Source: Kiritimatiellia bacterium (GTDB taxonomy: Bacteria; Verrucomicrobiota; Kiritimatiellia; RFP12; UBA1067). From it: a DNA stretch of 64,000 bases. Under the pieces are notes generated by a model, which worked only from the letters and a program-made list of their open reading frames with translations, did no database searches and had not been told where the DNA came from. The stretch is from positions 19,466 through 83,465 of the forward strand of contig JAZOQU010000001.1 of the NCBI GenBank assembly GCA_045656225.1. The letters are read 5' to 3'. A program made the position numbers and the translations under genes. Below, in pieces: positions 44,362 to 60,154 of this stretch. Position 1 is the first letter of the stretch, and each line of letters starts with the position of its first letter.

Positions 44362-44377
44362 TAGAAATTCACAAAGT

Positions 44378-44422
44378 GAAATAAATTGAGGCAGGCCAAG
44401 TCGGCTTGCCTTAATTTATTTC
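44378..44422 (+). terminator. long hairpin after nanA (20-bp stem, 5-nt loop)
   Basis: The arm gaaataaattgaggcaggcc pairs with ggcttgccttaatttatttc (18 Watson-Crick pairs plus 2 G-U). The 3' arm is U-rich. This segment is also homologous to the leaders of the two giant genes. Confidence 0.55.
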
Positions 44423-44574
44423 ATAGTGCATAATGCCCATCGTGCTCCACGCGGTGGGTACAACTTAAGGGGAGCGCGAGGGGGTGAGAGTTGGCGTCAG
44501 GAGGGTGGATGAGTTTGGGGTGTTGATTGGATAAGTTGTTAAAATGAGTGAAAATTGCGCTTTTTATTAAGTTA

Positions 44575-44583
44575 CCCCCCCCC
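44575..44583 (+). repeat. homopolymeric C9 tract upstream of the giant gene 1 promoter
   Basis: The context gttaCCCCCCCCCatcga was counted by hand. The tract ends 17 nt before the putative -35 element. Confidence 0.9.
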
Positions 44584-44600
44584 ATCGATACTTCTAAGAG

Positions 44601-44629
44601 TTGTTTTTAGTAATTAGAATTGATAGAAT
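44601..44629 (+). promoter_or_regulatory. putative promoter TTGTTT-17-(TGa)TAGAAT of giant gene 1
   Basis: It aligns position-for-position with TTGATT-17-(TGc)TAAAAT upstream of giant gene 2. The implied leader is about 120 nt. Confidence 0.45.
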
Positions 44630-44758
44630 TTCCTAAATAATGGTCACAGGATTATGGATGAAATATGCAGTATCGAAATTGGTTAGGTAAAAGCGAGTTG
44701 AGTTAATTCGCCTTAATTGATGTTCGTGATGCATGATTCAAAAAAAACGGAGTAAGTT

Positions 44759-47700
44759 ATGCGTAGCATAGTTCGAGGGGTTGTCGCGCTATTCGCGGCA
44801 TTTTTAATGATGGATGTGGCTAAAGCCGCGCCAACGATAGTCAGCCCGGCTGATTATTCGTCGTTTTCCACATACTCTTTGGCGTTCAAGGAGATTTTGG
44901 AAGAAGGGTCGTTGGGGCCAGATGCTTATGTTTCTTCGACATGGAGCAACCCGTATTTCGGGTATACCGACTACTCGTCAGGTGCTACGGCGGCGACATC
45001 CAAACGTGTTGCCGACAGATTGCTCATGCGTGACAACGCATTGCCTGTAACATTGAAGTGGGCTGGTTCCGCCGGGCAGGTAGTGGTTAAATTGTGGCGC
45101 ACCAAGAAGGACTCTGCGAACAATCCTCAGTTTACCGTTACGACAACAGGTACGTCGGCCAAGTTTTACGACTTGGAGTTCGGGCGCAATTATACTTGGA
45201 CTGTAACCGATTCAACCGGCACTGCCACCGGTCACTTCTATATCACGAACGATAGCGGCGCGCCCCGTATTCTTCTTTACGATCACGATCCCGACGCCAG
45301 CGGAGCCGATACCTCCAATACGCGCGATATGGGCGGATGGCGCACGACAAACGGCAAGGTCGTGAAACAGGGTCTTATCTACCGTACGGCTGAGCTTGAA
45401 TGGTGCAATCCTACAGATGCGAACGGAATGCGTCAGGAATTGACTTATCTTAAGAATACTCTCGGCATCAAGTTCGATATGGATTTTCGCAATTATACCG
45501 ATCTGCAGAATAAACTGGCCTATGTCGGCGCAAATTCAATTACTGAGCATGGCTGGAGATGGGCTTGGAAGAATGGCTCTTATTTGAATTTGAATGAATC
45601 GAACATCGGCGAAGGCGTCGTCCGTTTGAATATCAATAAATTAACGGGTGTTCAGTTTGGCTCGTATACAGAGCTTATTCCTAAAAAGTCTGCTACCGCC
45701 ACGGATAACAAGGACGATAGAAAGAACGTCTGGTGCGCGTTCACGAATCTTGCCAACAGCGCGAACTGGCCTATGGTGTTCCATTGCTCCCACGGCAAGG
45801 ATCGTGCGGGAACGTTCGCTTTAGTGATTCAAGGTGTATTGGGCGTTCCTAAAGAGGCGGCCTTGAAGGATTATGCCATTTCCTGGTTCGATAGCCCGGA
45901 TGAAACATTGGGTTATCTAACAATTTCCAATACCTGCGCCAATTTGGCCACCTATGTTTCAGGCAGCAATCTTTCGACGACATATTTCAAGGATCAGTGC
46001 ATCAACTTTTTGGTGCAATGCGGCAAGGATGCGGGGCTTTCCGAAGAAACTGTCAAAACCAAGATTACGGCGTTCCAGACTGCAATGCTTGAGGATCCAG
46101 AGATGCCCGATCTTGATCCGAACTTGACATCTGCGCCAGAGACTGACGGCGATACGTTTACGTATGTAAACCTTTATCACCGCAGACATGCTGGCGGCGG
46201 AGGAGTGGCCTCTACCAATGACGCTAAGACTGAATTGAGTTACATGTATACTACAGAAACTGGAGAAACTACTCATCCGGCTCCTTCCAAATTCGACAAT
46301 TATGATGTGTGTTTGTATTTCTATCCTACAGCAGGTTTGCCATATTCAACTCCCGTTGGCGCATATTATAAGGTAGGTAAAGTTGTTTCCAACGGTTATT
46401 ATTCTCCGTCTGCTGTAGGTCCCTATAGTTTCAAGTTTTATTTTTCGAGTGCTGATCATTCCAAGTCCGACAGAACGATTATTGAGCATAGGGCAGGTGT
46501 CGGTAAATATGAAAATGTTGACCTTTACTTTACTAAGTATGATTCGTCAAACTTAGGTGAAGGCGGTCGAAATTTGGCATACGTTTATACTGGTAGCAGT
46601 GCAGCTATTGAAGTATGGGCTAATGCTACAATGCGCATTATGGATATGAGGGATATGTCCCAGTTGCGCAGCGCGAAGGGTTACAAGGCTTATATCAAGT
46701 TCCCTAAAGGTAGGTGTGCCAATGCGCGCTTAGAAGCACTTGAGACTGATCGAGGTGACAGGTGTTCGCTCGGCTGGTTCACTGGCGGTGAAGCCGGAAC
46801 GCGCCAGTACATGAAGGTTAGCAATACATTGCTTGAGTTCAATGCGCCTAACAAGACGAGTACGGTGGAGGGTTCTCTCGGTCTTGAATTCTCATTGGGC
46901 AGCGTGAATACAACTTCAAGTCAGGCGATGCTCAAGGTCGCAGATAAGCTTGTAATTCCCGCAGGTTCGACCATTACTGTCAACGCAGGTCGCAAGGGCG
47001 CCGGCACCTACAGGCTTATTCAGGCTGGCACCCTGATTGATAACGCCAACCTCACCTTAAGGACCAACTACAAAGTTGACAACTGCAAGATTGGCTATTA
47101 TGGTACTATTGTTAATGATGGCAATAACCTTAACCTCGTCGTTCAAGAGGGTGAACCACCAGAGGAGGATCCTGAGGATATCGGGGATGCTGATGAAGGT
47201 GATTGGGGCTATAGAGTTAGAGGCTTAGGCGCTCTTAAGAATGAGACGGCTCTTGTATTTACCAATAGTGCTAAGACGGCTAACTGGGTAGTTCCCTCGA
47301 ATCTTGAGAATGTTCAGTTCCTCGTAGTCGGCGGCGGCGGTGGCGGCGGCGCTGATACTTGCGCGTCTGACGCATACTCTGGCGGCGGCGGTGGCGGCGG
47401 CGGCGGCGTAGTTACAGGTCTCGTTTCGTTTGCTGAGAATTCTTATGTCACTATTACTGTAGGTAAGGGCGGTGCCGGCGGTACTGAGGAAACGAAGTAC
47501 AATAGTCAATACGGTGCGTCAGCTTCGGGTGGCAATAGTATGTTTATTACAAGTGATGGACTTAGGGCGACTGCGTTTGGCGGTGGCGGCTCAGGCGGCA
47601 TTAGCGGCGGGACAAAAGTTCGCACTACAGTTGAATCTGGTCCAGCGGGCGGCTCAACGGCTGGTGGTCGCGCTAAGTCAGATGCCGATAAGAATACATT

Positions 47701-50700
47701 CGCTGGCCCTGTCGCTACAGCAACTAAGGGCGAAGTCGTCGGCATAACCGTTTATGGAACGATGGGTAATAACGGTGGTGAGAGTACTGGTAATTATGCC
47801 GGCGCCGGCGGCGGCGGCGCTATGGGTAAGGGCGATGATACAACCGGGGATGCTGCGAATGGCGGACCTGGCTATGAGTCTAATATTACCGGTAGTCGCG
47901 CTGTTTATGGTTCAGGCGGCGGCGGATCTGTTATTACTGGTGTCGGTGGCTTAGGTGGTGAAGGCGCTGGTAATGGTAATAGTTCGGCTGGTGCTTCTGG
48001 TACTGACGGCTTAGCTAACCAGGGTGGCGGCGGCGGCGCTGGTGGCCGTGGTGATTTAGATAGCGTTACTAAAGGCGGTAATGGCGGCTCGGGTATCGTA
48101 GTTATTCGCTATGTTGATGAGGCTGGTTCGCCTGATGATCCCGATGCTCCCGTCGTCAAGATCGCTTCAGATCCTGCGGTCATCCCTAATCTTGTGTACA
48201 ACGGTAATGAGCAGAACGGTGTTATTGCCGGAGAGGGATATGTTCTCTCGGGCGTCACAAAGGCCACATTCGCCGGCACTTACGAGGCGGTAGCTACGCT
48301 CAAGTCCGGTTATACGTGGTCTGATGGAGCGACTGAAGCGAAGACTCTAACATGGGCGATCGCGCAGTTCTCGAATTCTTGGACGATCGAACCTTCGATT
48401 TCGTTGGATTCGTGGATTTCGGGGGGCGCGGCAGGTGAACTTATTGCTGGTGTAGCTCGGTTTGGCGGTGTTCCAACTGGAGTATTTGTGAAGGGCGGCG
48501 AAGGTGAGTTTACAACTATGCCGACCGCGCCTGGCGAATACGAAGTTAAGTTTACAATCCCTGAGACGAGCGATTGGACAGGATTGACCAAGACGGTTGC
48601 GTTTACGATCCTTGAGCCGGGCGAAATCAATCCTACTGAGTATGGTACAGCCGATTCTGCGGAATCGACTTATGCGTGGATTGGGTATACTGGGCCTTGG
48701 ATGTATACGACTAACTGGACGGCTACAGCTAGCGGAACGTATGGAGTACCTAATAACGGAACATACGCGACGGCGGACTTCCCCGCGACGCGCGAGAATG
48801 AGTTTACTTGTACGCTTAACCAGAGTGTTGCGGTTAATAAGGCTGAATTTAATTCGCCTAATATGACATTCGTTTTAGATAATGCGCTCCTAACCCTTAA
48901 AGGTAAGGTTGATAGCTATGCAGCGTGCGACTTCGGTGATGGTGAAAACGATAATTCCACCATTGAATTGAGAGGCGCTAACGCTGGAATTGTTTCAGAC
49001 ACTAAAGAAGTTCGTCTCAATTTTGGCTATCGCCATGGTGAAGTGACTCCAACTGGTATTGTAACTGTTCGCTTCGTTGTTCCTGAAACCGGTTGGGAAA
49101 GCGATGCGAGACTTAAAGCAACGGGTATAGATTCTAAGGTTGTTTTTTATGCCAACTCTAAGCTCGAGATCGATGCGACGGCTCTTGGTGTTCCAGCCGA
49201 AGGCACGACAAAGACCGTTTATCTTGCTTCGGGTACGGGCGATGATGGCGTTTATGTTGAGTCCAAGACGACTAATATCGTATGCGCAGCAGGCGCGAAG
49301 GGTTCTATTAAGATAGAGTCTAAGAAGCTTGTTCTTACGGTTGAGGCCGATGAGATGACTGAGCCTGATGAGCCTCAGGAGCCTCAGTTGACGGCGGTTG
49401 ACGCGCCTGTCGCTCAGGTTGGTCTCGTTTACACGGGCCTTGAGTTGACGGGTGTTGAAAGCGGCACTGGTTATACGCTTACAGGTAATACGGCGACTGA
49501 CGCGGGCGAGTATATCGCCATAGCTACGCTCGCTGAAGGGTATAAGTGGTCTGATGGCTCGACTGATAATAAGGAAATTAGTTGGTCTATCGCTAAGGCG
49601 ACGAACGAGTGGACGACAGAGCCTTCGATTTCTCTCGAGTCCTGGACTCAGGGCGAGACAGCTGGCGTTTTAACGGCTGGTGTCGCTAAGTTCGGTACGG
49701 TTACAGCTTCAATGACTGAGCTCCCGACTGAAGTTGGTTCTTATACGATTACTTATACGGTAGCTGAGACTAAGAACTATACTGGTCTTACCGCGACTGT
49801 TCAGTTCGAGATTAAAGAGACTGAAAACGTTGGTCCAGGTGGAGATGCTAGTGATGATGAGGAAGATCCGATTGCTGTAATTGATGCGAACATGAAGAAG
49901 AACGGTTGGGGATATGTAAAGACTGGTCTTGGCGATCTTAAAAATGAAGTAGCTATTGTCTTCACTAACCATGTTGACAAGACTATGTCTTGGACCGTTC
50001 CTGATACGATCGAAAACGTCCAGTTCCTCGTCGTCGGCGGTGGCGGCGGTGGCGGCGGTTGTATTAGAAAGGGATCTAACTATGTTAAGAATGATGATGA
50101 AGGCGGCGCTGGCGGCGGCGGCGGCGGCGTAGTCACTGGATTGGTTAAATTTAATAAGGGTGATGTTGTAAGTGTTGCTGTCGGTGTTGGTGGTACTGGC
50201 GGTACTGGAGCGGATAATACTTCTACCGGTGGTGCTGGTGCTGGTACGAATGGTGGCGAAAGTAATTTTTATGTAGGTAACAACTTGTATATTAAGGCAT
50301 TTGGCGGTGGTGGAGATGGCGGATATGAGAGGGCTGGCGCTGTAGGCGGTTCCAGTGCCGGATGCCGTCCTAACAAAACCAGCGCGTCTCGTTCTGAAAC
50401 TAATATTGGAACTAAAGGTTCTAATGCAACAGCATATCTCTCGAATGTTGTGTTTAGGGGTTATACTGGAGGCGCAGGTTATACGTCTTGTACATCTGGC
50501 GGTGGCGGCGGTGCAACAGCTGCTGGTACTAAACCCTCAAACTCAGGTTATGGTGGTTATGGTGGAGCTGGTCTTACATTAAGTATTGCTGATGATATTG
50601 CTGTTACTTATGGTTCTGGCGGCGGCGGCGGTACTGCTAGGGATACTGGTGGCGGCGGTATGGGAGGTGATGGTGCTGGCGATGGCGGCGCTCGAGAAGG

Positions 50701-52753
50701 AAATACAGATCTTAATGGCGTCTCTGGTGCCCCAAATCAGGGTGGCGGCGGTGGCGGCGGTTCTTGGAATCAAGAGATTAGTACAACAACTTTCGGTAAT
50801 GGTGGGAATGGCGGCTCTGGTATCGTTGTCTTCCGCTATACGATTAAGAGCGAGGTAAAGGTAGATCCAGTTGAATATATTCAGTCTAAGATTTCCGACA
50901 AATATTATACTGGTATGCTTCAGACTTCTGGATTGACCGAAAATGAGGCTTATACAGTATCTGAAGTTGGCGGGATTAATGCGGGAGAGTATGAGCTTGA
51001 GGTTACGCTTAAGTCTGGCTTTGTATGGGCTGATGATTATCCGAATAAGCGTCGTATCTTCAATTGGAATATTCTCAAGGAGCCTAATAACTGGAAGACT
51101 CCGATGGCGCTTTCAGTCAAGAGTTGGGCACAGCATTATGCAGCCAATGTCAAGTTTGTTAAGCCCGTTCAGACGATTGGCGAGCTTAATGCCACGATTA
51201 CCAAGGATGGCGTAACAGAAACTTTTAACGGAACTTTACCTGTTGAGCCTGGCGTATACACTCTCAAATATTGGGTCGAAGAGAACGCTCTTAACTACAA
51301 CGGTTGCTCGTGTGAGGTTACATTTGTTATCTATCGTTCTGAGTCGATTGACGGAGGCTATAAGGTCTTTGGTCTTGGCGAAAAGGGTAATGAAGAGGCT
51401 ATGGTATTTACTGAGTCGGGTAACTGGACTCTTGATAAGAGCCTTAACAATGTTCAGTTCCTCGTAGTCGGCGGTGGCGGCGGCGGTGGTGCTGACAATA
51501 GTAAAACATCGGATCAACGTCAAGGCGGCTCTGGCGGTGGTGGCGGCGGTGTTGTTACAGGACTTGTCAATTTTGTCAGTGGTCAGACGATAACGGTTAC
51601 TGTCGGTGCCGGTGGTCAGGGCGGTGAACGTGGCGGTTCAACAAGTCCCTACGGTGCTGTAAAGACTCAGGCTGAGAATTCTTCGTTTGCTATTGGTACT
51701 GCAACATCTGTAGTTGCGTTTGCTGGTGGTGGAGATACCGGATCTACTAGTGATTCTTCAGATTCTACTGGCGGACAGACTGGCGGAAACGGCGGATCGG
51801 GCGCTGGTTCGCGTGCTACTGCGACTGGACGCGGCGAAGCTACTTGCGGCAATGTAAATGATACTGCGAAGGCTATTGTCTGCTCCAATACTCTCGGCAA
51901 TGACGGTGGCGCTGGCGCAGCAAAATACCAGGCCGGCGGCGGCGGCGGCGCTACTGCTGAAGGTGGCGCTGGCACAGAAGACGCCGGCGGTAATGGCGGT
52001 GAAGGCTTAGCCTCTAATATTATCGGTACAGACCTCGTTTACGGCTCCGGTGGTGGCGGTGGTGCCGTAGCTGGTGGCGCACAAGGTCCTGGCTTTGGCG
52101 GTAGTGGTGCTGGCAATGGCGGTCATGAAACAGAAGCTACTTCGGCTGTTCCCAATCAGGGTGGCGGCGGCGGTGGCGGCGGCCGCGCTGGTAACGGCGG
52201 CAACGGCGGCTCGGGTATCGTAGTGTTCCGCTATGTCGTTCTTAAATCTCCGACGATTGGAGATTCGCCTGTGGATGCAGCCGAGGCATTCGAAATCGCG
52301 AAGGTCTCCAAGCCTGTTCTCTATCCCAGCGAGCCTGAAGTTTCGACCAACACGGTTGACGGCGTTAAGGTTGTGACGGTGGCTTTTGGCGGCGTTAATG
52401 CTCCGGTTCCTGATTGCTATGACGTAATCAAGAGCGTCACAGATAAAGGCTATCAGATCAGTCTTGTGATCAAGGATGAGTTTAAGAATCCTACGATTGC
52501 CGACTCTGCTGATGATGAGACTCCGGCGATCAAGATTGAGAACGGTAAGGTTAAGATTCATCTTGAGGGAACTCACGAAAAACTTCATTATTCGCTCATG
52601 ACATCGACATCGATCGATCCAAGTGCAACTTGGACGACGGCGGAAGGCGATTGGACTGACAACGCCAACTTTGAGTTCGGCGATGGAGTTCAGAAGCTTG
52701 ATGACGTTCGCTTCTTCAAGGTGGGTGAAGTTTCCGACGAGCCGATAGAATAA
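44759..52753 (+). CDS. giant secreted multidomain protein 1 (2664 aa): phosphatase-like head, beta-helix-type segment, three polyglycine modules, three tandem Ig-like pairs, conserved C-terminal domain
   Basis: A GGAG lies upstream. The signal peptide is MRSIVRGVVALFAAFLMMDVAKA/AP. The Cys-X5-Arg motif is FHCSHGKDRAGT (Cys codon 45785-45787). The ORF is uninterrupted for 7995 nt and is followed by a strong terminator. Confidence 0.9.
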   Translation: MRSIVRGVVALFAAFLMMDVAKAAPTIVSPADYSSFSTYSLAFKEILEEGSLGPDAYVSSTWSNPYFGYTDYSSGATAATSKRVADRLLMRDNALPVTLKWAGSAGQVVVKLWRTKKDSANNPQFTVTTTGTSAKFYDLEFGRNYTWTVTDSTGTATGHFYITNDSGAPRILLYDHDPDASGADTSNTRDMGGWRTTNGKVVKQGLIYRTAELEWCNPTDANGMRQELTYLKNTLGIKFDMDFRNYTDLQNKLAYVGANSITEHGWRWAWKNGSYLNLNESNIGEGVVRLNINKLTGVQFGSYTELIPKKSATATDNKDDRKNVWCAFTNLANSANWPMVFHCSHGKDRAGTFALVIQGVLGVPKEAALKDYAISWFDSPDETLGYLTISNTCANLATYVSGSNLSTTYFKDQCINFLVQCGKDAGLSEETVKTKITAFQTAMLEDPEMPDLDPNLTSAPETDGDTFTYVNLYHRRHAGGGGVASTNDAKTELSYMYTTETGETTHPAPSKFDNYDVCLYFYPTAGLPYSTPVGAYYKVGKVVSNGYYSPSAVGPYSFKFYFSSADHSKSDRTIIEHRAGVGKYENVDLYFTKYDSSNLGEGGRNLAYVYTGSSAAIEVWANATMRIMDMRDMSQLRSAKGYKAYIKFPKGRCANARLEALETDRGDRCSLGWFTGGEAGTRQYMKVSNTLLEFNAPNKTSTVEGSLGLEFSLGSVNTTSSQAMLKVADKLVIPAGSTITVNAGRKGAGTYRLIQAGTLIDNANLTLRTNYKVDNCKIGYYGTIVNDGNNLNLVVQEGEPPEEDPEDIGDADEGDWGYRVRGLGALKNETALVFTNSAKTANWVVPSNLENVQFLVVGGGGGGGADTCASDAYSGGGGGGGGGVVTGLVSFAENSYVTITVGKGGAGGTEETKYNSQYGASASGGNSMFITSDGLRATAFGGGGSGGISGGTKVRTTVESGPAGGSTAGGRAKSDADKNTFAGPVATATKGEVVGITVYGTMGNNGGESTGNYAGAGGGGAMGKGDDTTGDAANGGPGYESNITGSRAVYGSGGGGSVITGVGGLGGEGAGNGNSSAGASGTDGLANQGGGGGAGGRGDLDSVTKGGNGGSGIVVIRYVDEAGSPDDPDAPVVKIASDPAVIPNLVYNGNEQNGVIAGEGYVLSGVTKATFAGTYEAVATLKSGYTWSDGATEAKTLTWAIAQFSNSWTIEPSISLDSWISGGAAGELIAGVARFGGVPTGVFVKGGEGEFTTMPTAPGEYEVKFTIPETSDWTGLTKTVAFTILEPGEINPTEYGTADSAESTYAWIGYTGPWMYTTNWTATASGTYGVPNNGTYATADFPATRENEFTCTLNQSVAVNKAEFNSPNMTFVLDNALLTLKGKVDSYAACDFGDGENDNSTIELRGANAGIVSDTKEVRLNFGYRHGEVTPTGIVTVRFVVPETGWESDARLKATGIDSKVVFYANSKLEIDATALGVPAEGTTKTVYLASGTGDDGVYVESKTTNIVCAAGAKGSIKIESKKLVLTVEADEMTEPDEPQEPQLTAVDAPVAQVGLVYTGLELTGVESGTGYTLTGNTATDAGEYIAIATLAEGYKWSDGSTDNKEISWSIAKATNEWTTEPSISLESWTQGETAGVLTAGVAKFGTVTASMTELPTEVGSYTITYTVAETKNYTGLTATVQFEIKETENVGPGGDASDDEEDPIAVIDANMKKNGWGYVKTGLGDLKNEVAIVFTNHVDKTMSWTVPDTIENVQFLVVGGGGGGGGCIRKGSNYVKNDDEGGAGGGGGGVVTGLVKFNKGDVVSVAVGVGGTGGTGADNTSTGGAGAGTNGGESNFYVGNNLYIKAFGGGGDGGYERAGAVGGSSAGCRPNKTSASRSETNIGTKGSNATAYLSNVVFRGYTGGAGYTSCTSGGGGGATAAGTKPSNSGYGGYGGAGLTLSIADDIAVTYGSGGGGGTARDTGGGGMGGDGAGDGGAREGNTDLNGVSGAPNQGGGGGGGSWNQEISTTTFGNGGNGGSGIVVFRYTIKSEVKVDPVEYIQSKISDKYYTGMLQTSGLTENEAYTVSEVGGINAGEYELEVTLKSGFVWADDYPNKRRIFNWNILKEPNNWKTPMALSVKSWAQHYAANVKFVKPVQTIGELNATITKDGVTETFNGTLPVEPGVYTLKYWVEENALNYNGCSCEVTFVIYRSESIDGGYKVFGLGEKGNEEAMVFTESGNWTLDKSLNNVQFLVVGGGGGGGADNSKTSDQRQGGSGGGGGGVVTGLVNFVSGQTITVTVGAGGQGGERGGSTSPYGAVKTQAENSSFAIGTATSVVAFAGGGDTGSTSDSSDSTGGQTGGNGGSGAGSRATATGRGEATCGNVNDTAKAIVCSNTLGNDGGAGAAKYQAGGGGGATAEGGAGTEDAGGNGGEGLASNIIGTDLVYGSGGGGGAVAGGAQGPGFGGSGAGNGGHETEATSAVPNQGGGGGGGGRAGNGGNGGSGIVVFRYVVLKSPTIGDSPVDAAEAFEIAKVSKPVLYPSEPEVSTNTVDGVKVVTVAFGGVNAPVPDCYDVIKSVTDKGYQISLVIKDEFKNPTIADSADDETPAIKIENGKVKIHLEGTHEKLHYSLMTSTSIDPSATWTTAEGDWTDNANFEFGDGVQKLDDVRFFKVGEVSDEPIE
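47204..48112 (+). repeat. polyglycine module 1 of giant protein 1 (~303 aa)
   Basis: The module starts WGYRVRGLGALKNETALVFTN..WVVPSNLENVQFLVVGGGGGGG. It contains GGGGGGGGGVVTGLV, AFGGGGSGG, YGSGGGGS and NQGGGGGAGG. It ends GGNGGSGIVVIRY. Confidence 0.85.
48178..48614 (+). repeat. tandem Ig-like (MBG-like) pair A
   Basis: The sequence LVYNGNEQNG..AGTYEAVATLKSGYTWSDG..TWAIAQFSNSWTIEPSISLDSW..PGEYEVKFTIPETSDWTGLTKTVAFTILE is paralogous to 49388-49819, 50903-51334 and 56558-56989. Confidence 0.7.
49388..49819 (+). repeat. tandem Ig-like (MBG-like) pair B; best-conserved nucleotide tract shared with giant gene 2
   Basis: This 432-nt tract is collinear with 56558-56989, which has the same length. 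It includes identical runs such as tcgctaaggcgacgaacgagtggacgac and atgactgagctcccgac. Confidence 0.8.
49907..50839 (+). repeat. polyglycine module 2 of giant protein 1 (~311 aa)
   Basis: The module starts WGYVKTGLGDLKNEVAIVFTN..WTVPDTIENVQFLVVGGGGGGGG and ends GNGGNGGSGIVVFRY. Confidence 0.85.
50903..51334 (+). repeat. tandem Ig-like (MBG-like) pair C (most divergent)
   Basis: The sequence is YYTGMLQTSG..AGEYELEVTLKSGFVWADD..NWNILKEPNNWKTPMALSVKSW..PGVYTLKYWVEENALNYNGCSCEVTFVIY. Confidence 0.6.
51359..52234 (+). repeat. polyglycine module 3 of giant protein 1 (~292 aa)
   Basis: The module starts YKVFGLGEKGNEEAMVFTE..WTLDKSLNNVQFLVVGGGGGGG and ends GNGGNGGSGIVVFRY. The 26-mer aatgttcagttcctcgtagtcggcgg is identical to the one in module 1. 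Confidence 0.85.
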
Positions 52754-52776
52754 ACATAAATTATAGAGTAGAAACG

Positions 52777-52808
52777 CGAGCCTCCTTAAAAAAGGGGGCT
52801 CGTTTTTT
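52777..52808 (+). terminator. rho-independent terminator of giant gene 1
   Basis: The stem cgagcctcc / gggggctcg has an 8-nt A-rich loop and is followed by T6. It is nearly identical to the terminator at 58996-59029. Confidence 0.85.
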
Positions 52809-52937: not shown

Positions 52938-52947
52938 CCCCCCCCCC
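52938..52947 (+). repeat. homopolymeric C10 tract upstream of the giant gene 2 promoter
   Basis: The context acttaCCCCCCCCCCtcga was counted by hand. Its position relative to the -10 is the same as for the C9 tract of gene 1. Confidence 0.9.
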
Positions 52948-52963: not shown

Positions 52964-52992
52964 TTGATTTTTGAAAATTAGAGTGCTAAAAT
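52964..52992 (+). promoter_or_regulatory. putative promoter TTGATT-17-(TGc)TAAAAT of giant gene 2
   Basis: It is homologous in position and sequence to 44601-44629. The implied leader is about 120 nt. Confidence 0.45.
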
Positions 52993-53116: not shown

Positions 53117-56100
53117 ATGCGAAGTATAATTCGAGGTGTTGTCGCTTTATTCGCGGCATTTTTAATGATGGATGTGGCTAATGCCGCGCCAACGATAGTT
53201 AGCCCAGTCGATTATTCGACGGTTCAGACATTAACGGATTCAATGAAGAACTTAATAAGTCCGTTGAATTCAGATGTTTCAATTTTTAGTAAAGCTAATA
53301 CTACTGCGCGTGACAATTATGAAACGGAGTATTTTTATAACAACTCAGTTCCCGCCACCTTGTCATGGAGCGGCACTACAGGTGATTGCACCGTTAAGGT
53401 TTGGCGTACGAACGGCGGTAGCGAAAGCGCTCCGTTCTTTAGCGAAACGGTTTCAGGTACTTCAACCGAATGTTACAACCTTGAAGTAGGGTGCAACTAT
53501 ACATGGAAAGTTACCGATTCTCAGGGTAATTCCGCTGTCGGTCACTTCTTTACCGAAGATCAGGCGCCTCGTATTATTCGCGGTCGTAGAAGCAATTTTA
53601 CTTATACGTCCGGCGCTGACTGTTCTAACGGTCGTGATATCGGCGGATGGGCTACAGCTGACGGCAAGCGCGTCAAACAGGGTAAGATATATCGCTCTGG
53701 ACAGCTTGAATATTGCTCATTTAAGGAAGGATCAGGTATTTATCAGAAGATGGATATGCTCTACGATGTGCTCGGCATTCGCGTAGATGTTGATCTTAGA
53801 ACTGTAGAAAATGTTAATGCGTTTGCAGATTGGAAGGCTGAATGGGATACGGGCTCTGATAATGTTTGTAAATGGTCTGGCATCGGCCCTGATGTAGAGC
53901 GATTCACCATTGAATGGGAAACTCTCGGTAAGGGACCTTCTGAAGGTAATCCGTACGTATATGATGGTAAGTATGGTTGCCAGTTCCCCTCGTATAGCGG
54001 TTTTTATAATAGTATGTCTATAGATTATAAAGTAGGCGATACGACAAAAACATATACTCAGACTGCAGCACAGAATAAGATTGCGGTGTGGGCGGCGTTC
54101 AACAGAATTTATCAAGCTGTTGTTGTAGATAAAGAGCCTGTGCTCTTCCATTGTTCACACGGTAAGGATCGCACAGGTTCGCTCGCTTTGGTGATTCATG
54201 GTCTTCTCGGTGTTTCAGAAGCGAATATTAAAAGAGATTTCGCAACGGCTTGGTTCTGCAATCCGGATTATACATTCACGCAGACCAGCATGAATAATAT
54301 GATTACTGGGCTTAAGAATTTAGATACTGCTTCTACTAAGACTCTCGCTGGTGGTTGCGAAAACTATTTGATCAGTTGTGCGACCTCGGCCGGTGATACG
54401 GCTGGTGCTACTAAGGTTGCGGCGTTTAAGTCTGCGATGTTAGAGGATGTCGAGACTGCGGCAGAAAATCCCAATCAGGAATTGGCTTCGACTGTCTCTT
54501 CCGCTATAGCTTCGTATGTAACTTATCCTACGCCTAAATTTACGGTTAGCGGCTCTATAGCTCTTGGGACCGGCACTACGACCGCGATGCTTTATTATTC
54601 GCTTAACAGCAGTGATTGTGATCAGACTGCTGAACTTACTCTTGGTGAGGACGGGACGTTTTCTTATGATATTGATTATGTAAATCCGACAGATACGCTT
54701 ACATGGTATGTTTCGGTTACAACGGTTAATGAAGGTAAGAGCGTTACAAATCAGACTAATTCGGCTACTGTAACGCGTACGAGAGATTCTGGTAATATTA
54801 CTTATTGTTGGACAGGTGCTGCTGGTGATGGTAAGTGGTCCAATATGGCGAACTGGACTGCCGATACTACGTATGACGCGTGGGGGTATCCTGGTCTTAT
54901 TGATGCGAATAGTGCGTATTATCGTTCTACTACTAAATTTGATTCACGCGCCAATAATGCTGTTATCGACCTTGAAGGTAATGCATATCAGGGAAGAGAT
55001 GGCAATGACGCTATGATCTTTGATTCAAATGTTGGCCCTGTTACATTGAAAAACGGTACCTTCTATTTCAATAAAAGTGGTACTACAATTGGTGCGTCTG
55101 GTGCTGTCATTGTATTTGACGGCATGGTCCTCAATAGAAGTAGCGGGTATACATCATTCACGTTGACATCGGCAAGTGGCTTTACGATGCGATTTGTCGG
55201 AGATCAAACTTATGTTGAAGGTGGATTGATATTTAGCGGTACGTATGGCTTTACTATTCCCGCTGAAGGACTTGGAGCTGCTCCTCTTAAAGCGAAGACA
55301 TTGACTGCTGGTGCTGCGACTATTGAAGTCGATGTTACGGATTATACAGCTGCGGGCCAGATTCCTCTTATGACATTCACGGGAACGGTTTCTGATCCAA
55401 GGAGTTCGTTGACGCTCGTTACGAAGGTTAATGGTCAGACAGTAACTGGTCGTGGTGAACTTGTTTGGAGTTCTAAGACCCTTTATTATAAACAGGATAA
55501 GCAGGAAGTTGTTGATCCTGATCAGCCTGGCGGCGAAACTCCTGAAACTCCTGAAACTCCTGAAATTCCACCAAGTGAGGGCGGTGTAACTACTAACGCA
55601 ATGGCTGATGCTTCATGGGGTTATATCGTCACGGGGCTTGGCGACAATCATAATGAGACGGCTGTAGTATTTACGAACGAGAATGCGACGGCGATGACCT
55701 GGACCATACCCGAAACTCTCAATAATGTTCAATTCCTCGCTGTCGGCGGTGGCGGTGGTGCTGGTGGTGCTGCGTCATATCATACATCTTCTGGCAAATA
55801 TAACCGCGGCGGTGCCGGCGGTGGTGGCGGCGGTGTTGTCACTGGCTTGGTTGACTTTGTCGATGGGTCTATAGTGTCGGTAACAGTCGGCAAAGGTGGC
55901 GAAGGCGGTGTTCGAGTAAACAATACTACGAATGGTACGGCAGCTGCAAAAAGTGCAGGTGGTAAATCCTCATTTTCTGTAAATGATATTAGCTATGTTA
56001 TAGCTCGCGGCGGTGGCAGAGATCTTGGTCTTGGCAAGAGTGGTGGTTATGGCGGGTCTAATGCAGGAAGTCGAACGACCAGTAGGCAGGAAAAGTTTTC

Positions 56101-58969
56101 GTGGCTAGATACTGATGTTAATACGACTTATATAACTGCGTATGAGAAACTTGGTAATTATGGCGGTGTGGCGTATTCAAAAAATAACAATGTGCGAGCT
56201 GGCGCCGGTGGCGGCGGTGCTACAGAAGAGGGTGCATCTTGCACTGATCAAGATAATGCTGCTAAGGGTGGTAAAGGCCTTGCCTCTGATATTACAGGCG
56301 TAAGCGCAGTATATGGCTCAGGCGGCGGTGGCGGATCTGGATATAATGGTGTCGGTGCGTCTGGCGGTAGTGATGAAGCTGGTGCTGGCGGTAACTCTTC
56401 ATCAAGTACAACTCCTAATGATGGTGGAGATGGTCTTGCGAACTACGGTGGTGGCGGCGGCGGCGCTGGCCGTGAAGGTAAAGGCGGTAACGGTGGCTCG
56501 GGTATCGTTGTCTTCCGTTATACAACTACGCCTACGACCGAACCTGATGTGCCTGTCTTGACGGCGGTTGATGCGCCTGTGGCTGTTGCTGACCTCGTTT
56601 ATACTGGTTCTGAGTTGACGGGTGTTGTTGCAGCTGACGGTTACACGCTTACCGGTAATACTGCTACGGATGCTGGAACTTACGAGGCAACGGCTACGCT
56701 CGCTGAAGGCTATAAGTGGTCTGACGATACGACTGAGCTTAAGACAATCAGCTGGTCGATCGCTAAGGCGACGAACGAGTGGACGACCGAGCCCTCGATC
56801 TCTCTCGAGACCTGGACTCAGGGTGAAACGGCCGGCGTTTTAACATCTGGTGTCGCTAAGTTCGGCGAGGTTACATCTACGATGACTGAGCTCCCGACGG
56901 CTGTTGGTAAGTATACGATCACTTACACGGTAGTCGAGACCGATAACTATAGTGGTCTTACTAAGGAGGTTTCGTTCGAAATTCTTAAGAAGCCCACTTC
57001 TTACGACTTCACGGTCGGCGATGTTGCTCTTACTGACGGTAAGCTTACCTTCAAGGGTAATTTCGCGATTGACGGCGAATCCGAAGCGACCGAGATGAAT
57101 CTCGTAGTAAGCGTTTACGATGTTGCCGAGGGTGGTGACGCTCTTAAGATGGTTACTGTTGAGGGTATTCCAGCTGGCGAATTCAATCAGGAGATTGATA
57201 TTGCCGCGCTTGAACTCGCTGACGGCGTATATTATCTCGCCTTCGAGGTTCAGGACGAAGCCGGTAATGTTCTCGACAAGGTCGAAGAGCGCTCGATGCT
57301 CACCATCGGCGAGGTTAAGGCTGTTAAGCCTACGGTCAATTACGCGAGCGGAACTAAGTTTACGGCTATCGGTGTTGAGCAGAAGCCGGTCGTAACGCCT
57401 GCTGACGGTAATGGTTACACGGTCAGCTACGAAGGCGACTTCACTTCTGCCGGCACTCATAGAATCGTTATCGCGCTTAAGGACGGTTGGACTTGGAGCG
57501 ACGGAACGAGCGACAGCTTAACGTATGAGTACGAGTTCATTGAACGTACATATACTGAGTATTATATCAAGTCACGTGGAGGAGCCTCAGATGGAGGTAC
57601 TTACCAGTCGAATGACCGTTGGTATACTGATCCTGAGTTTGCTGCTGGTTCTAAGATGTCCACATGTCCTAATGTGTATGATGCTCATAATATTGCCAAC
57701 ATCCCCTCTGACTCACAGTGCTGGCTCTTGATTGATAACGAAGAGGACATTGTTGTTACGCCTAAGTTCGGTAAATTTACCGTTGATGGTAATCTCCGTA
57801 TAGTTACATACAGCGGCGCATTGATGTTCCAGAATGATACGGCTACACCTATGCCGATCTGGGAGGTTAAATCAGGCGTCTCCACTATTGACGGTGTCGT
57901 CTTTGACGTAAATGGCGCTGGTACCGGTTATATTGATATTGCCGCTAATGCCACAAATGTTCTAGGCGGTGTTAACTATAAGAGTGGGTTAGAATCGAGC
58001 AAGAAGCTCTTCGTTCGCTTCAGCGATGAAGCTACGGCGGGTTCGGCACTTCGCGTTCATGATTTCGAAAGCTACTACGCTACAAATCTCGGCTGGTTTG
58101 AGGGCGGCGCTGAAGGTTCGACTTACACGTTGGATTTTGACGAGGGCGCTTTAAATCTCACCAATCCCGATGCTGTCAGCGGTGTTGCCGGCGATCTCGC
58201 GATTACCGTAAAGCTCGGCGATAGGGTTGGCGCGGAGAATGCCTACCTTAATGTTGCGGGTACGCTCAATATCAACGAGGGCTCAACTCTCGCGGTTGAC
58301 GCTAACAGCATGCCTTGCGGCGTTTACACGATCATCAATGCCGCGACATTCAACGGCGCCGATCTCTTGACGAGCGCTGCGGGCGCTACGGTAACGGGTC
58401 TCGCCGAGTTTACGAGCGGTGAGCTCGTTCGCGAAGGCAATAAGATCGTACTCTATATCGAGACGACGATCCCGCCGAGAGTTCCCGGTATTGAAGGGGA
58501 TTCTGTCGCGACGAACGCCGTATTCGAGACAGCTCGTGTCGCTAAGCCGATCTGGTATAAGACTATGCCTGCGATCAACGGTGATGAGATTACGTTTAAC
58601 CGCGTCACGGTTAAGGTTCCCGAGTACTATGACGTTACCTTGGAAACTTTGGCTGACGGCTATCTCGTAAATCTCAAGCTTAAGGACAACCTCAAGGCCT
58701 TCATCGCCAATAAGGTTGAGAACGATCAGATCGTGACACCTGCCATCAGGATTGAGAACGAAAAGGTCTATATCCACCTTGAGAACACCAAGTCGGATCT
58801 CTATTATACGCTTTTGAAGTCGACTAAGCTCGGCGCTGAAGCTGAATGGAAGCCGACCGAAGAGTATGCGATAGGTAAGGCCGACTTTGAGTACACGCCT
58901 GCGGAAGGTGAAGCCGAGACATGCTTCTTCAAGGCGGGCGACGTAATGGACGAGCCACCGGCAAAGTAA
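53117..58969 (+). CDS. giant secreted multidomain protein 2 (1950 aa), paralog of protein 1 with one polyglycine module
   Basis: The signal peptide MRSIIRGVVALFAAFLMMDVANA/AP is about 90% identical to gene 1 at nucleotide level over the first ~100 nt, by eye. The Cys-X5-Arg motif is FHCSHGKDRTGS (Cys codon 54152-54154). It shares the C-terminal domain and the terminator. Confidence 0.9.
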   Translation: MRSIIRGVVALFAAFLMMDVANAAPTIVSPVDYSTVQTLTDSMKNLISPLNSDVSIFSKANTTARDNYETEYFYNNSVPATLSWSGTTGDCTVKVWRTNGGSESAPFFSETVSGTSTECYNLEVGCNYTWKVTDSQGNSAVGHFFTEDQAPRIIRGRRSNFTYTSGADCSNGRDIGGWATADGKRVKQGKIYRSGQLEYCSFKEGSGIYQKMDMLYDVLGIRVDVDLRTVENVNAFADWKAEWDTGSDNVCKWSGIGPDVERFTIEWETLGKGPSEGNPYVYDGKYGCQFPSYSGFYNSMSIDYKVGDTTKTYTQTAAQNKIAVWAAFNRIYQAVVVDKEPVLFHCSHGKDRTGSLALVIHGLLGVSEANIKRDFATAWFCNPDYTFTQTSMNNMITGLKNLDTASTKTLAGGCENYLISCATSAGDTAGATKVAAFKSAMLEDVETAAENPNQELASTVSSAIASYVTYPTPKFTVSGSIALGTGTTTAMLYYSLNSSDCDQTAELTLGEDGTFSYDIDYVNPTDTLTWYVSVTTVNEGKSVTNQTNSATVTRTRDSGNITYCWTGAAGDGKWSNMANWTADTTYDAWGYPGLIDANSAYYRSTTKFDSRANNAVIDLEGNAYQGRDGNDAMIFDSNVGPVTLKNGTFYFNKSGTTIGASGAVIVFDGMVLNRSSGYTSFTLTSASGFTMRFVGDQTYVEGGLIFSGTYGFTIPAEGLGAAPLKAKTLTAGAATIEVDVTDYTAAGQIPLMTFTGTVSDPRSSLTLVTKVNGQTVTGRGELVWSSKTLYYKQDKQEVVDPDQPGGETPETPETPEIPPSEGGVTTNAMADASWGYIVTGLGDNHNETAVVFTNENATAMTWTIPETLNNVQFLAVGGGGGAGGAASYHTSSGKYNRGGAGGGGGGVVTGLVDFVDGSIVSVTVGKGGEGGVRVNNTTNGTAAAKSAGGKSSFSVNDISYVIARGGGRDLGLGKSGGYGGSNAGSRTTSRQEKFSWLDTDVNTTYITAYEKLGNYGGVAYSKNNNVRAGAGGGGATEEGASCTDQDNAAKGGKGLASDITGVSAVYGSGGGGGSGYNGVGASGGSDEAGAGGNSSSSTTPNDGGDGLANYGGGGGGAGREGKGGNGGSGIVVFRYTTTPTTEPDVPVLTAVDAPVAVADLVYTGSELTGVVAADGYTLTGNTATDAGTYEATATLAEGYKWSDDTTELKTISWSIAKATNEWTTEPSISLETWTQGETAGVLTSGVAKFGEVTSTMTELPTAVGKYTITYTVVETDNYSGLTKEVSFEILKKPTSYDFTVGDVALTDGKLTFKGNFAIDGESEATEMNLVVSVYDVAEGGDALKMVTVEGIPAGEFNQEIDIAALELADGVYYLAFEVQDEAGNVLDKVEERSMLTIGEVKAVKPTVNYASGTKFTAIGVEQKPVVTPADGNGYTVSYEGDFTSAGTHRIVIALKDGWTWSDGTSDSLTYEYEFIERTYTEYYIKSRGGASDGGTYQSNDRWYTDPEFAAGSKMSTCPNVYDAHNIANIPSDSQCWLLIDNEEDIVVTPKFGKFTVDGNLRIVTYSGALMFQNDTATPMPIWEVKSGVSTIDGVVFDVNGAGTGYIDIAANATNVLGGVNYKSGLESSKKLFVRFSDEATAGSALRVHDFESYYATNLGWFEGGAEGSTYTLDFDEGALNLTNPDAVSGVAGDLAITVKLGDRVGAENAYLNVAGTLNINEGSTLAVDANSMPCGVYTIINAATFNGADLLTSAAGATVTGLAEFTSGELVREGNKIVLYIETTIPPRVPGIEGDSVATNAVFETARVAKPIWYKTMPAINGDEITFNRVTVKVPEYYDVTLETLADGYLVNLKLKDNLKAFIANKVENDQIVTPAIRIENEKVYIHLENTKSDLYYTLLKSTKLGAEAEWKPTEEYAIGKADFEYTPAEGEAETCFFKAGDVMDEPPAK
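55616..56521 (+). repeat. polyglycine module of giant protein 2 (~302 aa)
   Basis: The module starts WGYIVTGLGDNHNETAVVFTN..WTIPETLNNVQFLAVGGGGGAGG and ends GKGGNGGSGIVVFRY. Confidence 0.85.
56558..56989 (+). repeat. tandem Ig-like (MBG-like) pair of giant protein 2
   Basis: This is the 432-nt counterpart of 49388-49819 (LVYTGSELTGV..AGTYEATATLAEGYKWSDD..SWSIAKATNEWTTEPSISLETWTQGETAG..). Confidence 0.8.
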
Positions 58970-60077: not shown

Positions 60078-60154
60078 CGGAGCGTAGCGCAGTCTGGTAG
60101 CGCGTTTGCTTCGGGAGCAAAAGGTCGAGGGTTCAAATCCCTCCGCTCCGACCA
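60078..60154 (+). tRNA. tRNA-Pro (anticodon CGG), CCA encoded
   Basis: I folded the cloverleaf by hand. The acceptor stem is CGGAGCG/CGCTCCG (7 bp) and the D stem is GCGC/GCGC. The anticodon stem is TTTGC/GCAAA with loop TTCGGGA. The T arm is GAGGG-TTCAAAT-CCCTC, with discriminator A plus CCA. Length is 77 nt. Confidence 0.9.

Follow-up and report, generated by a model that had tools for sequence, protein, structure and literature searches.

What are the glycine-rich modules that recur in two very long tandem genes of a ruminant-hindgut Kiritimatiellae bacterium, how did one gene come to hold three of them and its paralogue one, and what would they do for the cell? A preliminary description of the window (the whole 64-kb stretch of DNA analyzed here) had placed four such modules in two genes, likened them to the glycine-rich domain of the animal receptors ALK and LTK, and attributed the difference in copy number to unequal recombination. 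The four modules of about 300 aa, three in gene 1 and one in gene 2, are confirmed at the coordinates first given (Table 1): a four-module profile run over the six-frame ORFs of the whole window (hmmsearch) returned exactly four full-length matches, at aa 816-1118, 1717-2027 and 2199-2492 of gene 1 and aa 834-1135 of gene 2. Glycine makes up 27-32% of the modules vs 12-16% of the whole proteins. Pairwise identity between modules is 49-55%, or 32-40% without Gly-Gly columns, and the four-way alignment holds 96 invariant columns. The non-Gly motifs NVQFL, VVTGLV, YGSGGGG and GGNGGSGIVV.RY are invariant in all four, the last of these bearing out the closing motif GGNGGSGIVV[FI]RY of the preliminary description. 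Other motifs that it had reported as common to the set hold in part: the opening W.[VI]P reads W.LD in module 3, AFGGGG reads AFAGGG in module 3 and ARGGGR in module 4, and NQGGGGG reads NYGGGGG in module 4. The number of glycine runs, given as 8-10, has to be raised, as 14 runs, 6 with at least four Gly and 8 doublets, are conserved across 25 related modules.

Table 1. Coordinates, in the window, of the two genes, their domains and the signals around them
Feature	Position	Strand	Evidence and remarks
Poly-C tract C9	44575..44583	+	184 nt upstream of gene 1 start codon
Gene 1	44759..52753	+	2664-aa predicted secreted multidomain protein; ORF listing, translation, Pfam, internal-repeat map
PTP-like phosphatase domain, gene 1 (PF13350)	45311..45883	+	Pfam E 5.6e-24; HCSHGKDRAG
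TG1 (PF21722)	47204..48112	+	78 bits, E 1.4e-21, model 3-225/226
Ig-like pair after TG1	48113..48643	+	Internal repeats, alignment
Ig-like pair before TG2	49316..49858	+	Internal repeats; AF2 model
TG2 (PF21722)	49907..50839	+	77 bits
Ig-like pair between TG2 and TG3	50840..51355	+	Internal repeats, alignment
TG3 (PF21722), module modelled by AF2	51359..52234	+	79.8 bits; profile start 51353/51359
C-terminal ~170-aa domain, gene 1	52235..52750	+	Internal repeats, relatives
Terminator-like hairpin and T run	52776..52803	+	Between gene 1 and gene 2
Poly-C tract C10	52938..52947	+	179 nt upstream of gene 2 start codon
Gene 2	53117..58969	+	1950-aa tandem paralogue of gene 1; ORF listing, translation, Pfam
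PTP-like phosphatase domain, gene 2 (PF13350)	53618..54247	+	Pfam E 1.4e-26; HCSHGKDRTG
TG module, gene 2 (PF21722)	55616..56521	+	76.2 bits; hmmsearch
Ig-like pair after gene 2 TG module	56522..57004	+	Internal repeats, alignment
C-terminal domain, gene 2	58478..58966	+	Homologous to that of gene 1; internal repeats

The two chromosomal genes are both intact by ORF listing and translation, and their products begin with Sec signal peptides, read in the translations, that end in AKA and ANA. In gene 1 the signal peptide is followed by an N-domain, the PTP-like domain, an X domain, TG1, an Ig pair, a segment here called mid2, a second Ig pair, TG2, a third Ig pair, TG3 and the C-terminal domain; gene 2 has the same N-terminal part and then a single TG module, followed by an Ig pair, an X domain and, at the end, the C-terminal domain, and aa 1-1295 and 1-1296 of the two products are 36% identical. 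Pfam searches of the whole proteins at E<=1 found PF13350 and PF21722 as the only families in both, and NCBIfam matched neither protein. The PTP-like domain has an intact CX5R loop in both proteins (HCSHGKDRAG in gene 1, HCSHGKDRTG in gene 2), and that of gene 1 has a PDB sequence match to 8dhi_A (E 1e-10). For the segments between modules Pfam gave sub-threshold hints only (Bact_surface_Ig-like, MBG_2, Big_13). The Ig pair before TG2, which shares 77-81% identity with the Ig pair of gene 2, was modelled by AF2 as two beta-sandwiches (pLDDT 81.7), for which Foldseek found no match at E<=1e-3 and weak, Ig-like PDB matches (6s5y, 6xi1, 9g93). The type of C-terminal domain found in gene 1 is terminal in all relatives, where it occurs in several allelic types; it carries no recognizable sorting signal, and a homology search with it gave one protein only. 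From these sequences, the products of both genes are probably exported or held at the cell surface. The terminator-like hairpin suggests that the genes are separate transcription units. About 17 nt downstream of the C10 tract there is a match to a sigma70-like promoter (52964-52992), and tracts of C11-C14 stand upstream of related genes, with none in L001 and L004. An Rfam search found only a tRNA.

The modules are almost certainly members of Pfam family PF21722 (Gly_rich_2), with a compact predicted fold. All of them score well above the gathering threshold (76.2-79.8 bits vs 24.3), from model position 3, 4 or 7 to 225 of 226, and the whole gene 1 protein reaches 206 bits over 3 stretches. 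Chance resemblance is excluded, since each module matches the curated Pfam model at E 4e-22 to 5e-21. PHROG 2295 also matches the modules (E 1e-27 to 2e-36), with weaker matches to tail-protein PHROGs. The family named in the preliminary description, PF12810, was not recovered: hmmscan of each module at E<=10 listed PF21722 alone, and the whole proteins gave no match to PF12810 at E<=1. Because PF21722 is already in Pfam with solved phage representatives, the core finding is a known domain family, not a new fold. A PE_PGRS-like or antifreeze-like identity was rejected, as there were no family matches and the gut setting speaks against an antifreeze role.

The AF2 model of module 3 (pLDDT 93.4, pTM 0.93) has 242 of 292 residues at pLDDT >=90, ~78 residues in DSSP strands and no segment below 50, in agreement with the earlier view of a folded domain and not of linkers. 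It shows the predicted strands of a TNF-like sandwich interleaved with the ~14 conserved Gly runs in a compact fold, and it also reproduces the framing pattern described before, a strand, a W-strand and a hydrophobic strand that runs into a Gly run; the polyglycine-II geometry of the runs we infer from the solved phage homologues. In a Foldseek search of the PDB the first rank was taken by the tail tip of mycobacteriophage Bxb1 (9d93_Qa, E 6e-7, target TM 0.62), next came the Pam3 fibre (7ypx/7yfw, E 1e-4; 7ypx_A 1.3e-4, target TM 0.48), and then, still among the best 50 matches, ~20 ALK/LTK chains with TM-scores of 0.18-0.26. Below ~E 0.5, and among the matches listed, the glycine-rich/TNF-like ectodomains of ALK/LTK were the only non-phage PDB matches; S16 gp38 (6F45) was not among the best 50. 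At E<=1e-3, 237 viral models in BFVD matched, the highest query TM being 0.79, and those named 'Glycine-rich domain-containing protein' reached 0.77-0.79. Moreover, a profile search of PDB sequences found the Pam3 fibre (E 9e-4), in an alignment that takes in the strands at the N-terminus as well as the closing GG.G..GI..V.Y strand. When 50,697 phage records were searched by tblastn with module 3, no match was obtained, the low-complexity filter probably masking the Gly runs; the evidence that links module 3 to phages therefore comes from PHROGs, BFVD and the PDB.

Published work on these homologues offers points of comparison. In cyanophage Pam3, gp24, the nearest homologue with a solved structure, combines a TNF-like domain with a glycine-rich one, whose 12 glycine-rich motifs (GRMs) form a lattice of 4 layers. 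The distal loops have been proposed as the receptor site, and gp24 is structurally similar to C. elegans ALK (7LIR) and S16 gp38 (PMC9608196). The modules resemble gp24 (PF21722, 7YPX/7YFW) in the full-length HMM match, the profile hit and the Foldseek match, and in TNF-like strands that are interleaved with GGGG.GG runs and end in the same terminal strand. However, gp24, of 280 aa, forms a trimeric fibre whose tip carries a single domain, with a helical bundle at the N-terminus and a dedicated chaperone, whereas the modules are ~300 aa long, stand 1-3 to a cellular protein of 2-2.7 kaa, have 14 Gly runs vs 12 GRMs and show no helical bundle, and no chaperone gene was identified nearby. Polyproline-II (PPII) bundles have been recognized in 7YFW and in Bxb1 gp33/gp29 (PMC13243192), where gp33, named the 'tail wing brush', is a PPII bundle in PDB 9D93, and chains Qa/Qb are putatively gp33. 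These chains, the best structural match of the module, are likewise a glycine-rich PPII bundle, but of 230 aa, with 22% sequence identity and in an accessory virion protein. Since Bxb1 gp33 is non-essential, with an undefined role, and dispensable together with gp30/gp31 (PMC12646305), a receptor-binding role is established or proposed for some homologues only. The adhesin gp38 of Salmonella phage S16, a polyglycine-II sandwich, shares with the modules a conserved Gly lattice that presents variable loops, but has 10 helices in three layers and no TNF-like sandwich, and no Pfam or PHROG match to gp38 families was found. Rib/alpha-like proteins, RTX adhesins and the S-layer protein Sap are also long exported proteins with Ig-like sandwiches between functional heads; the weak Foldseek matches of the Ig-pair model to such proteins (6s5y, 6xi1, 9g93) all fall short of E<=1e-3, and the heads described here are PF21722 modules.

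Three other identities can be weighed against this assignment. High glycine content, and the fact that DSSP gives most residues no regular structure, might suggest that the Gly-rich stretches are disordered low-complexity linkers, a reading to which the high pLDDT of module 3, the conservation of Gly positions in 25 modules and significant matches over the full length, with a curated domain as with solved structures, leave practically no room. True membership of the animal ALK/LTK family (PF12810) draws on more: the ectodomains (7LIR, 7NX3, 7LS0, 7NX1) also interleave a beta-sandwich with Gly runs and are the only non-phage neighbours among the best 50 Foldseek matches (E 8e-4 to 0.13; 7lir with probability 1.0 over 128-138 columns), Pam3 gp24 has been superposed on 7LIR at 2.6 Å over 125 C-alpha atoms (PMC9608196), and ALK has been listed with 14 PPII segments (PMC13243192), the same number as that of the conserved Gly runs here. 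It is nonetheless very improbable given the hmmscan result, a PDB-sequence profile search that retrieved no ALK/LTK chain at E<=10, the low TM-scores and a full-length RMSD of 15-17 Å. ALK and LTK, moreover, are animal receptor kinases that bind ALKAL cytokines and have one copy per protein, and their architecture of EGF-like module, transmembrane helix and kinase was not found here, where Pfam finds PF13350 and PF21722 only. Phage matches lead and the ALK/LTK entries are weak; what survives of the likeness first proposed is thus, judged from the model, a remote fold relationship and not family membership. Finally, the module domain is abundant in phages, and the genes might be taken for phage, prophage or tailocin tail-fibre genes and not cellular ones. 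This is extremely unlikely: the neighbours are housekeeping genes (glgB-like, accD/accA, dapA, an M18 aminopeptidase, a V-ATPase operon and uvrD), phage structural genes were not found anywhere in the 64 kb, the products have Sec signal peptides and a multidomain architecture of 2-2.7 kaa, and several strains keep the locus in syntenic position behind dapA.

With PF21722 as the family, the copy number of the modules can be set against that of their relatives. Proteins of other Kiritimatiellae are built in the same way and carry 1-7 modules, and among the 150 best library hits 98 contain >=2 matched stretches, so that three modules in one protein are not unusual in this lineage, contrary to what had been supposed. 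Identity between strains is patchy. In a strain with 96% nt-identical housekeeping genes, the identity of gene 1 ranges from 38% to 97% nt, in blocks. Compared with L001, a block at aa ~790-1119 (the linker and TG1) is 91-98% nt-identical and its flanks 61-76%; dS is 0.20 in TG1 but runs from 1.3 to above 2 in the flanks, and dN/dS is ~0.2 throughout. The high conservation of TG1 is due to this low dS, i.e., to recent exchange. These alignments show that the genes are recombination mosaics: strains exchange whole TG modules and neighbouring domains as cassettes, with no change in how many modules there are or in the order in which they stand. The earlier idea of recombination at Gly tracts holds in so far as one junction falls directly after the first (GGN)7 run, but the outcome there is cassette replacement, not a change in copy number.

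Variation within the modules is distributed unevenly. In the 25 related modules, 64 columns have Gly at >=80% and an entropy of 0.20, compared with 1.61 for strands and 2.10 for the rest, and indels are confined to loops. TG2 is the most strain-variable module (54-55% identical to strain-variant TG2), and between its alleles 90% of Gly columns, 66% of strand and 34% of loop positions are identical. TG1 loops are nearly identical between distant strains, and 'hypervariable binding loops' are for this reason documented for TG2 and paralogues only; the dN/dS in TG1 (~0.2) indicates purifying and not positive selection, and positive selection on TG1 loops was accordingly rejected. A mechanism that fits these observations is that gene 1 and gene 2 encode exported, surface or secreted multivalent binding proteins, in which the glycine lattice would serve as a rigid scaffold, the variable loops between Gly runs would form the ligand-binding face, and separate modules may carry separate specificities. 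By analogy with the phage proteins, the chances that ligands are bound through the module loops seem to us evenly balanced. With moderate confidence, we take the best explanation overall to be exported proteins with PF21722 modules that undergo cassette exchange, the modules forming polyglycine-lattice heads spaced by Ig-like pairs.

Both the history and the role of the modules admit other accounts. The three-versus-one difference might be recent, produced by unequal recombination between (GGN)n tracts and polymorphic in populations: every module has (GGC/GGT)n runs, the longest of ~28 nt, at corresponding positions, the 9-Gly run in TG1 numbers 5 Gly in one strain variant, one recombination junction lies against the first Gly run, and copy number does vary across the family. 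Paralogous modules, however, are only ~50% identical (49-55%) and group by position with deep splits, three modules are present in all five full-length strain variants and in L012, and the longest exact DNA words common to modules measure 17-26 nt, at or below the ~25 nt usually quoted as the minimum for efficient RecA recombination. A recent origin is accordingly most improbable, and module copy number is, on this sequence comparison, old and stable. As to role, the modules could be mainly mechanical: rigid blocks, resistant to proteases, that with the Ig pairs build a long stalk to keep the N-terminal phosphatase-like domain at a distance from the cell, and that bind no ligand of their own. 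The Ig-like spacers in their beads-on-a-string arrangement, the conserved loops of TG1 under purifying selection and the catalytic loop kept by the PTP-like domain would all suit such a stalk. Yet the phosphatase domain adjoins the signal peptide at the N-terminus, and four relatives (L006, L007, L009 and L011) have no phosphatase domain at all, their TG module following the signal peptide. Furthermore, loops diverge on a fixed scaffold between alleles and between paralogues, which a spacer would not need, and all characterized homologues are placed at binding tips. We regard the stalk as rather unlikely, and retain the multivalent binding protein as the preferred reading.

Full-text literature searches found no published description of a protein family of the gene 1/gene 2 type, and nothing relevant on PF21722/PF12810, 8DHI or Kiritimatiellae surface proteins. 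It is tempting, if speculative, to see here a phage receptor-binding polyglycine-lattice fold in use as an exchangeable specificity cassette in gut Kiritimatiellae. What such a reading would add is several heads on one giant exported protein, possibly swapped by recombination at module ends and Gly runs, which we put forward tentatively; a further addition, similarly doubtful, is that poly-C tracts, or promoter deletions such as the forms found in L012 and L015, switch expression. Glycine-rich PPII/polyglycine-II bundles are a rare structural class, relevant to protein design and to the origin of the domain by which ALK/LTK bind their ligands, and they occur here as a phage-type fold in 1-7 copies within giant cellular proteins of a gut phylum that is abundant and has been little studied. 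The strains provide a natural series of loop swaps and module swaps on a constant glycine scaffold, and the scaffold-versus-loop hypothesis is therefore directly testable. For gut microbiology, the analysis flags a strain-variable, probably surface-exposed protein family, which, if the reading is true, would be a cellular and multivalent adhesin or recognition system that varies within populations and makes use of a fold so far studied in phage fibres and in ALK/LTK only.

A profile built from the four glycine-rich modules (TG1, TG2 and TG3 in gene 1, and one in its tandem paralogue, gene 2) and run against all six-frame ORFs recovered exactly four full-length copies in the window, at the positions reported in the preliminary description, whose motif strings also fit overall, apart from minor departures in modules 3 and 4. 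The modules contain 27-32% Gly and share 49-55% pairwise identity (32-40% without Gly-Gly columns), and many of the 96 invariant columns in their alignment are not Gly (NVQFL, VVTGLV, YGS, GIVV.RY). PF21722 (Gly_rich_2), whose cut-off is 24.3 bits, matches each module at 76-80 bits (E about 1e-21) along practically the full length of the model. The modules also match PHROG 2295 (E 1e-27 to 2e-36), with weaker matches to tail-protein PHROGs. PF21722 was present in all 78 relatives from a 5.8-billion-protein index, the nearest being Kiritimatiellae MAGs, and 11 of 11 related loci in species-representative genomes were Kiritimatiellae MAGs from yak or sheep hindgut. In an exhaustive profile search covering 1.84 billion representatives, E ≤ 1e-3 was reached by 2539 proteins, ≤ 1e-10 by 429 and ≤ 1e-30 by 84. 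Three modules in one bacterial protein had been thought unusual; however, related ORFs carry 1-5, a single 4528-aa protein contains seven in full, and at least two matched stretches occur in 98 of the best 150 proteins from the profile search. A PTP-like domain plus a varying number of PF21722 modules is a recurring architecture, while in a second subfamily the TG module immediately follows the signal peptide.

Each giant protein starts with a Sec-type signal peptide whose last residues are AKA/ANA, and the CX5R loop of the PTP-like domain is intact in gene 1 (HCSHGKDRAG) and gene 2 (HCSHGKDRTG), so that a putative extracellular phosphatase activity is possible. The nearest solved sequence to this domain is 8dhi_A (E 1e-10), and NCBI lists a partial orthologue as "tyrosine-protein phosphatase." Pairs of Ig-like sandwiches flank the TG modules (model pLDDT 81.7), with only weak structural neighbours (Ig-like, Rib, cadherin, S-layer). 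The C-terminal ~170-aa domain closes with a hydrophobic strand (e.g., FFKVG or FKLVF) and exists in at least three unrelated allelic types among strains. Neither Pfam nor NCBIfam matches it, hardly any relatives are indexed and no sorting signal was recognised, yet it may serve in anchoring or sorting. A terminator-like hairpin lies between the two genes.

Features of the giant genes and other elements in the window
Feature	Position	Strand	Remarks
ORF	17358-18917		AAA-ATPase_like (PF09820) and PDDEXK_9 (PF08011) domains; in a lower-GC stretch (about 47-50%) shared with a uvrD-like helicase and the V-type ATPase operon
C9 tract	44575-44583	+	184 nt upstream of gene 1
Leader hairpin, gene 1	~44690-44712		
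Gene 1	44759-52753	+	intact ORF, 2664 aa
PTP-like domain (PF13350), gene 1	45311-45883	+	after signal peptide
TG1	47204-48112	+	aa 816-1118 (profile search)
Middle segment	48644-49315		gene 1 aa 1296-1519
Ig pair before TG2	49370-49813		
TG2	49907-50839	+	aa 1717-2027 (profile search)
TG3	51359-52234	+	aa 2199-2492 (profile search)
C-terminal ~170-aa domain, gene 1	52235-52750	+	always extreme C-terminus, also in L002, L004, L006, L007, L009 and L011 ORFs
C10 tract	52938-52947	+	179 nt upstream of gene 2
Leader hairpin, gene 2	~53045-53065		
Gene 2	53117-58969	+	intact ORF, 1950 aa
PTP-like domain (PF13350), gene 2	53618-54247	+	after signal peptide
Gene 2 TG module	55616-56521	+	aa 834-1135 (profile search)
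Gene 2 Ig pair	56540-56983		
C-terminal ~170-aa domain, gene 2	58478-58966	+	as for gene 1
tRNA gene	60078-60151		RF00005, 71 bits; no other Rfam match in the window at gathering threshold

Judged from sequence comparison, both giant genes are strong recombination mosaics. Identity between gene 1 and its strain variants is 95-98% in TG1, 90-94% in a middle segment and 84-86% in TG3, but only 54-55% in TG2, and in the C-terminal domain it ranges from 24% to 97%. Relative to L001, a locus from another Kiritimatiellae genome, a stretch made up of precisely the linker and TG1 (aa ~790-1119) is 91-98% identical in nucleotides, and identity is 61-76% to either side of it. In this L001 comparison TG1 has a dS of 0.20 and the flanks have 1.3 to more than 2, while dN/dS is similar throughout (about 0.2), so TG1 conservation reflects recent exchange rather than stronger constraint. 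In strain L012, the TG1 allele differs despite four upstream housekeeping genes being 96% nucleotide-identical to the window and DapA being identical; near-perfect identity to gene 1 lasts until the first GGGGGGG run and collapses directly after it. The Ig pair before TG2 and the gene 2 Ig pair are 77.5% identical in nucleotides (77-81% in amino acids), compared with about 36% for the two genes elsewhere, which suggests that gene conversion has linked the two paralogues; this segment has two allelic forms among strain variants. The middle segment at aa 1296-1519 is 93% identical to aa 1152-1375 of the L004 ORF, from another MAG, which is otherwise a much more distant paralogue; on this comparison the segment, too, is a cassette that has been exchanged. 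A weak GDSL-lipase match is also present in L004. Recombination thus replaces modules as cassettes, with junctions sometimes at Gly runs, and does not change their copy number.

Recent unequal crossover, previously proposed to explain the 3-versus-1 module difference between the genes, is unsupported and improbable, because a neighbour-joining tree clusters the modules by position, with the positions deeply split from one another, three modules are present in each of five full-length gene 1 strain variants (2638-2657 aa) and the partial L012 copy, and the longest exact DNA words common to modules are 17-26 nt. Small-scale triplet slippage does occur, one strain variant having a 5-Gly run in place of a 9-Gly run. 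An AlphaFold2 model of module 3, made with a 53-sequence alignment (pLDDT 93.4, pTM 0.93, no segment below 50), has 13 short strands separated by long stretches that are neither helix nor strand. As these stretches are also modeled confidently, disordered linkers, the outcome that the preliminary description had held would undo its interpretation, have a virtually nil probability. In Foldseek searches of the PDB, the top match was the mycobacteriophage Bxb1 tail tip (9d93_Qa/Qb, E 6e-7, target TM 0.62), followed by the cyanophage Pam3 fibre (7ypx/7yfw, E 1e-4) and about twenty ALK/LTK ectodomain entries (E 8e-4 to 0.1, TM 0.2-0.26), with no other match below roughly E 0.5. Predicted viral structures gave 237 matches at E ≤ 1e-3, the highest query TM being 0.79; the viruses concerned were cyanophages, prasinoviruses, a halovirus and a Pelagibacter phage. 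A sequence profile search of the PDB also reached the Pam3 fibre (E 9e-4) and retrieved no ALK chain. The Pam3 fibre protein gp24 is a TNF-like sandwich whose strands run on into a glycine-rich domain, where 12 extended motifs form a four-layer lattice with a spacing of about 5 A, and is structurally similar to both S16 gp38 and C. elegans ALK 7LIR (PMC9608196). The ALK/LTK resemblance noted earlier is therefore real but distant, a relationship at the level of the fold that runs through the phage family; strict membership of the ALK/LTK family is hard to credit, and PF12810 went unmatched, given that PF21722 alone was found for any module in Pfam even at E ≤ 10. A prophage origin, which the viral matches might bring to mind, is less probable still, with housekeeping neighbours (glgB-like, accD/accA, dapA, M18 peptidase, V-ATPase operon, uvrD) and no phage genes anywhere in the 64-kb window.

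7YFW and Bxb1 gp33/gp29 have been listed as PPII-helical bundles (PMC13243192), and we infer polyglycine-II geometry for the modules by analogy. The main rival to a binding role, that the modules are purely a mechanical stalk, is unlikely, if less so than the alternatives just considered. When 25 full modules, taken from the window and from related loci, are aligned, at least 80% of them have Gly at 64 columns, which make up 14 conserved runs and have an entropy of 0.20, compared with 1.61 in strand columns and 2.10 in the remainder; insertions are located in the loops between runs. Between the window TG2 and strain-variant TG2, identity is 90% in Gly columns, 66% in strands and 34% in loops. 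Such a gradient would be expected of a fixed lattice showing variable loops; in gp24, distal loops are the proposed receptor site (PMC9608196).

Upstream regions also vary. The C9 and C10 tracts, the only C or G homopolymers of at least 8 nt in the whole 64-kb window, lie at homologous positions just upstream of a sigma70-like promoter match and are candidate phase-variation tracts. C11-C14 tracts occur about 152-157 nt upstream of related TG genes in L006, L007 and L009, and the tract is absent at the homologous site in L001 and L004. Among strains with identical DapA, the region 5′ of gene 1 (window 44362-44758) differs structurally: in L012 (3838-3973) about 136 nt are left and the promoter-like and poly-C region is gone, L015 (1988-2104) resembles the product of a deletion between a pair of GCCTTAATT direct repeats that joined the dapA hairpin to the 5′ leader, and L014 (1540-1847) has a different gene after dapA. 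The leader hairpin of the giant genes is conserved, also in L001 and L004, with compensatory changes (GCGA...TCGC in gene 1, GCAAG...CTTGC in gene 2, GCAAGC...GCTTGC in L001), and is followed before the ATG by conserved CCTTAATTGAT...GATTCAAAAA..GGAGTA.

The module fold is not new, because PF21722 is catalogued and phage members have been solved. A full-text literature search found no description of giant cellular proteins that combine tandem Ig-spaced modules with a PTP-like domain, or of module-precise cassette exchange, and both appear to be undescribed. The giant proteins are probably exported, surface-associated multidomain binding proteins. In the best-supported reading, the modules would be rigid glycine-lattice heads that bind ligands through the loops between Gly runs, Ig pairs would space these heads along the exported protein, and strain-level cassette exchange would diversify specificity or antigenicity.
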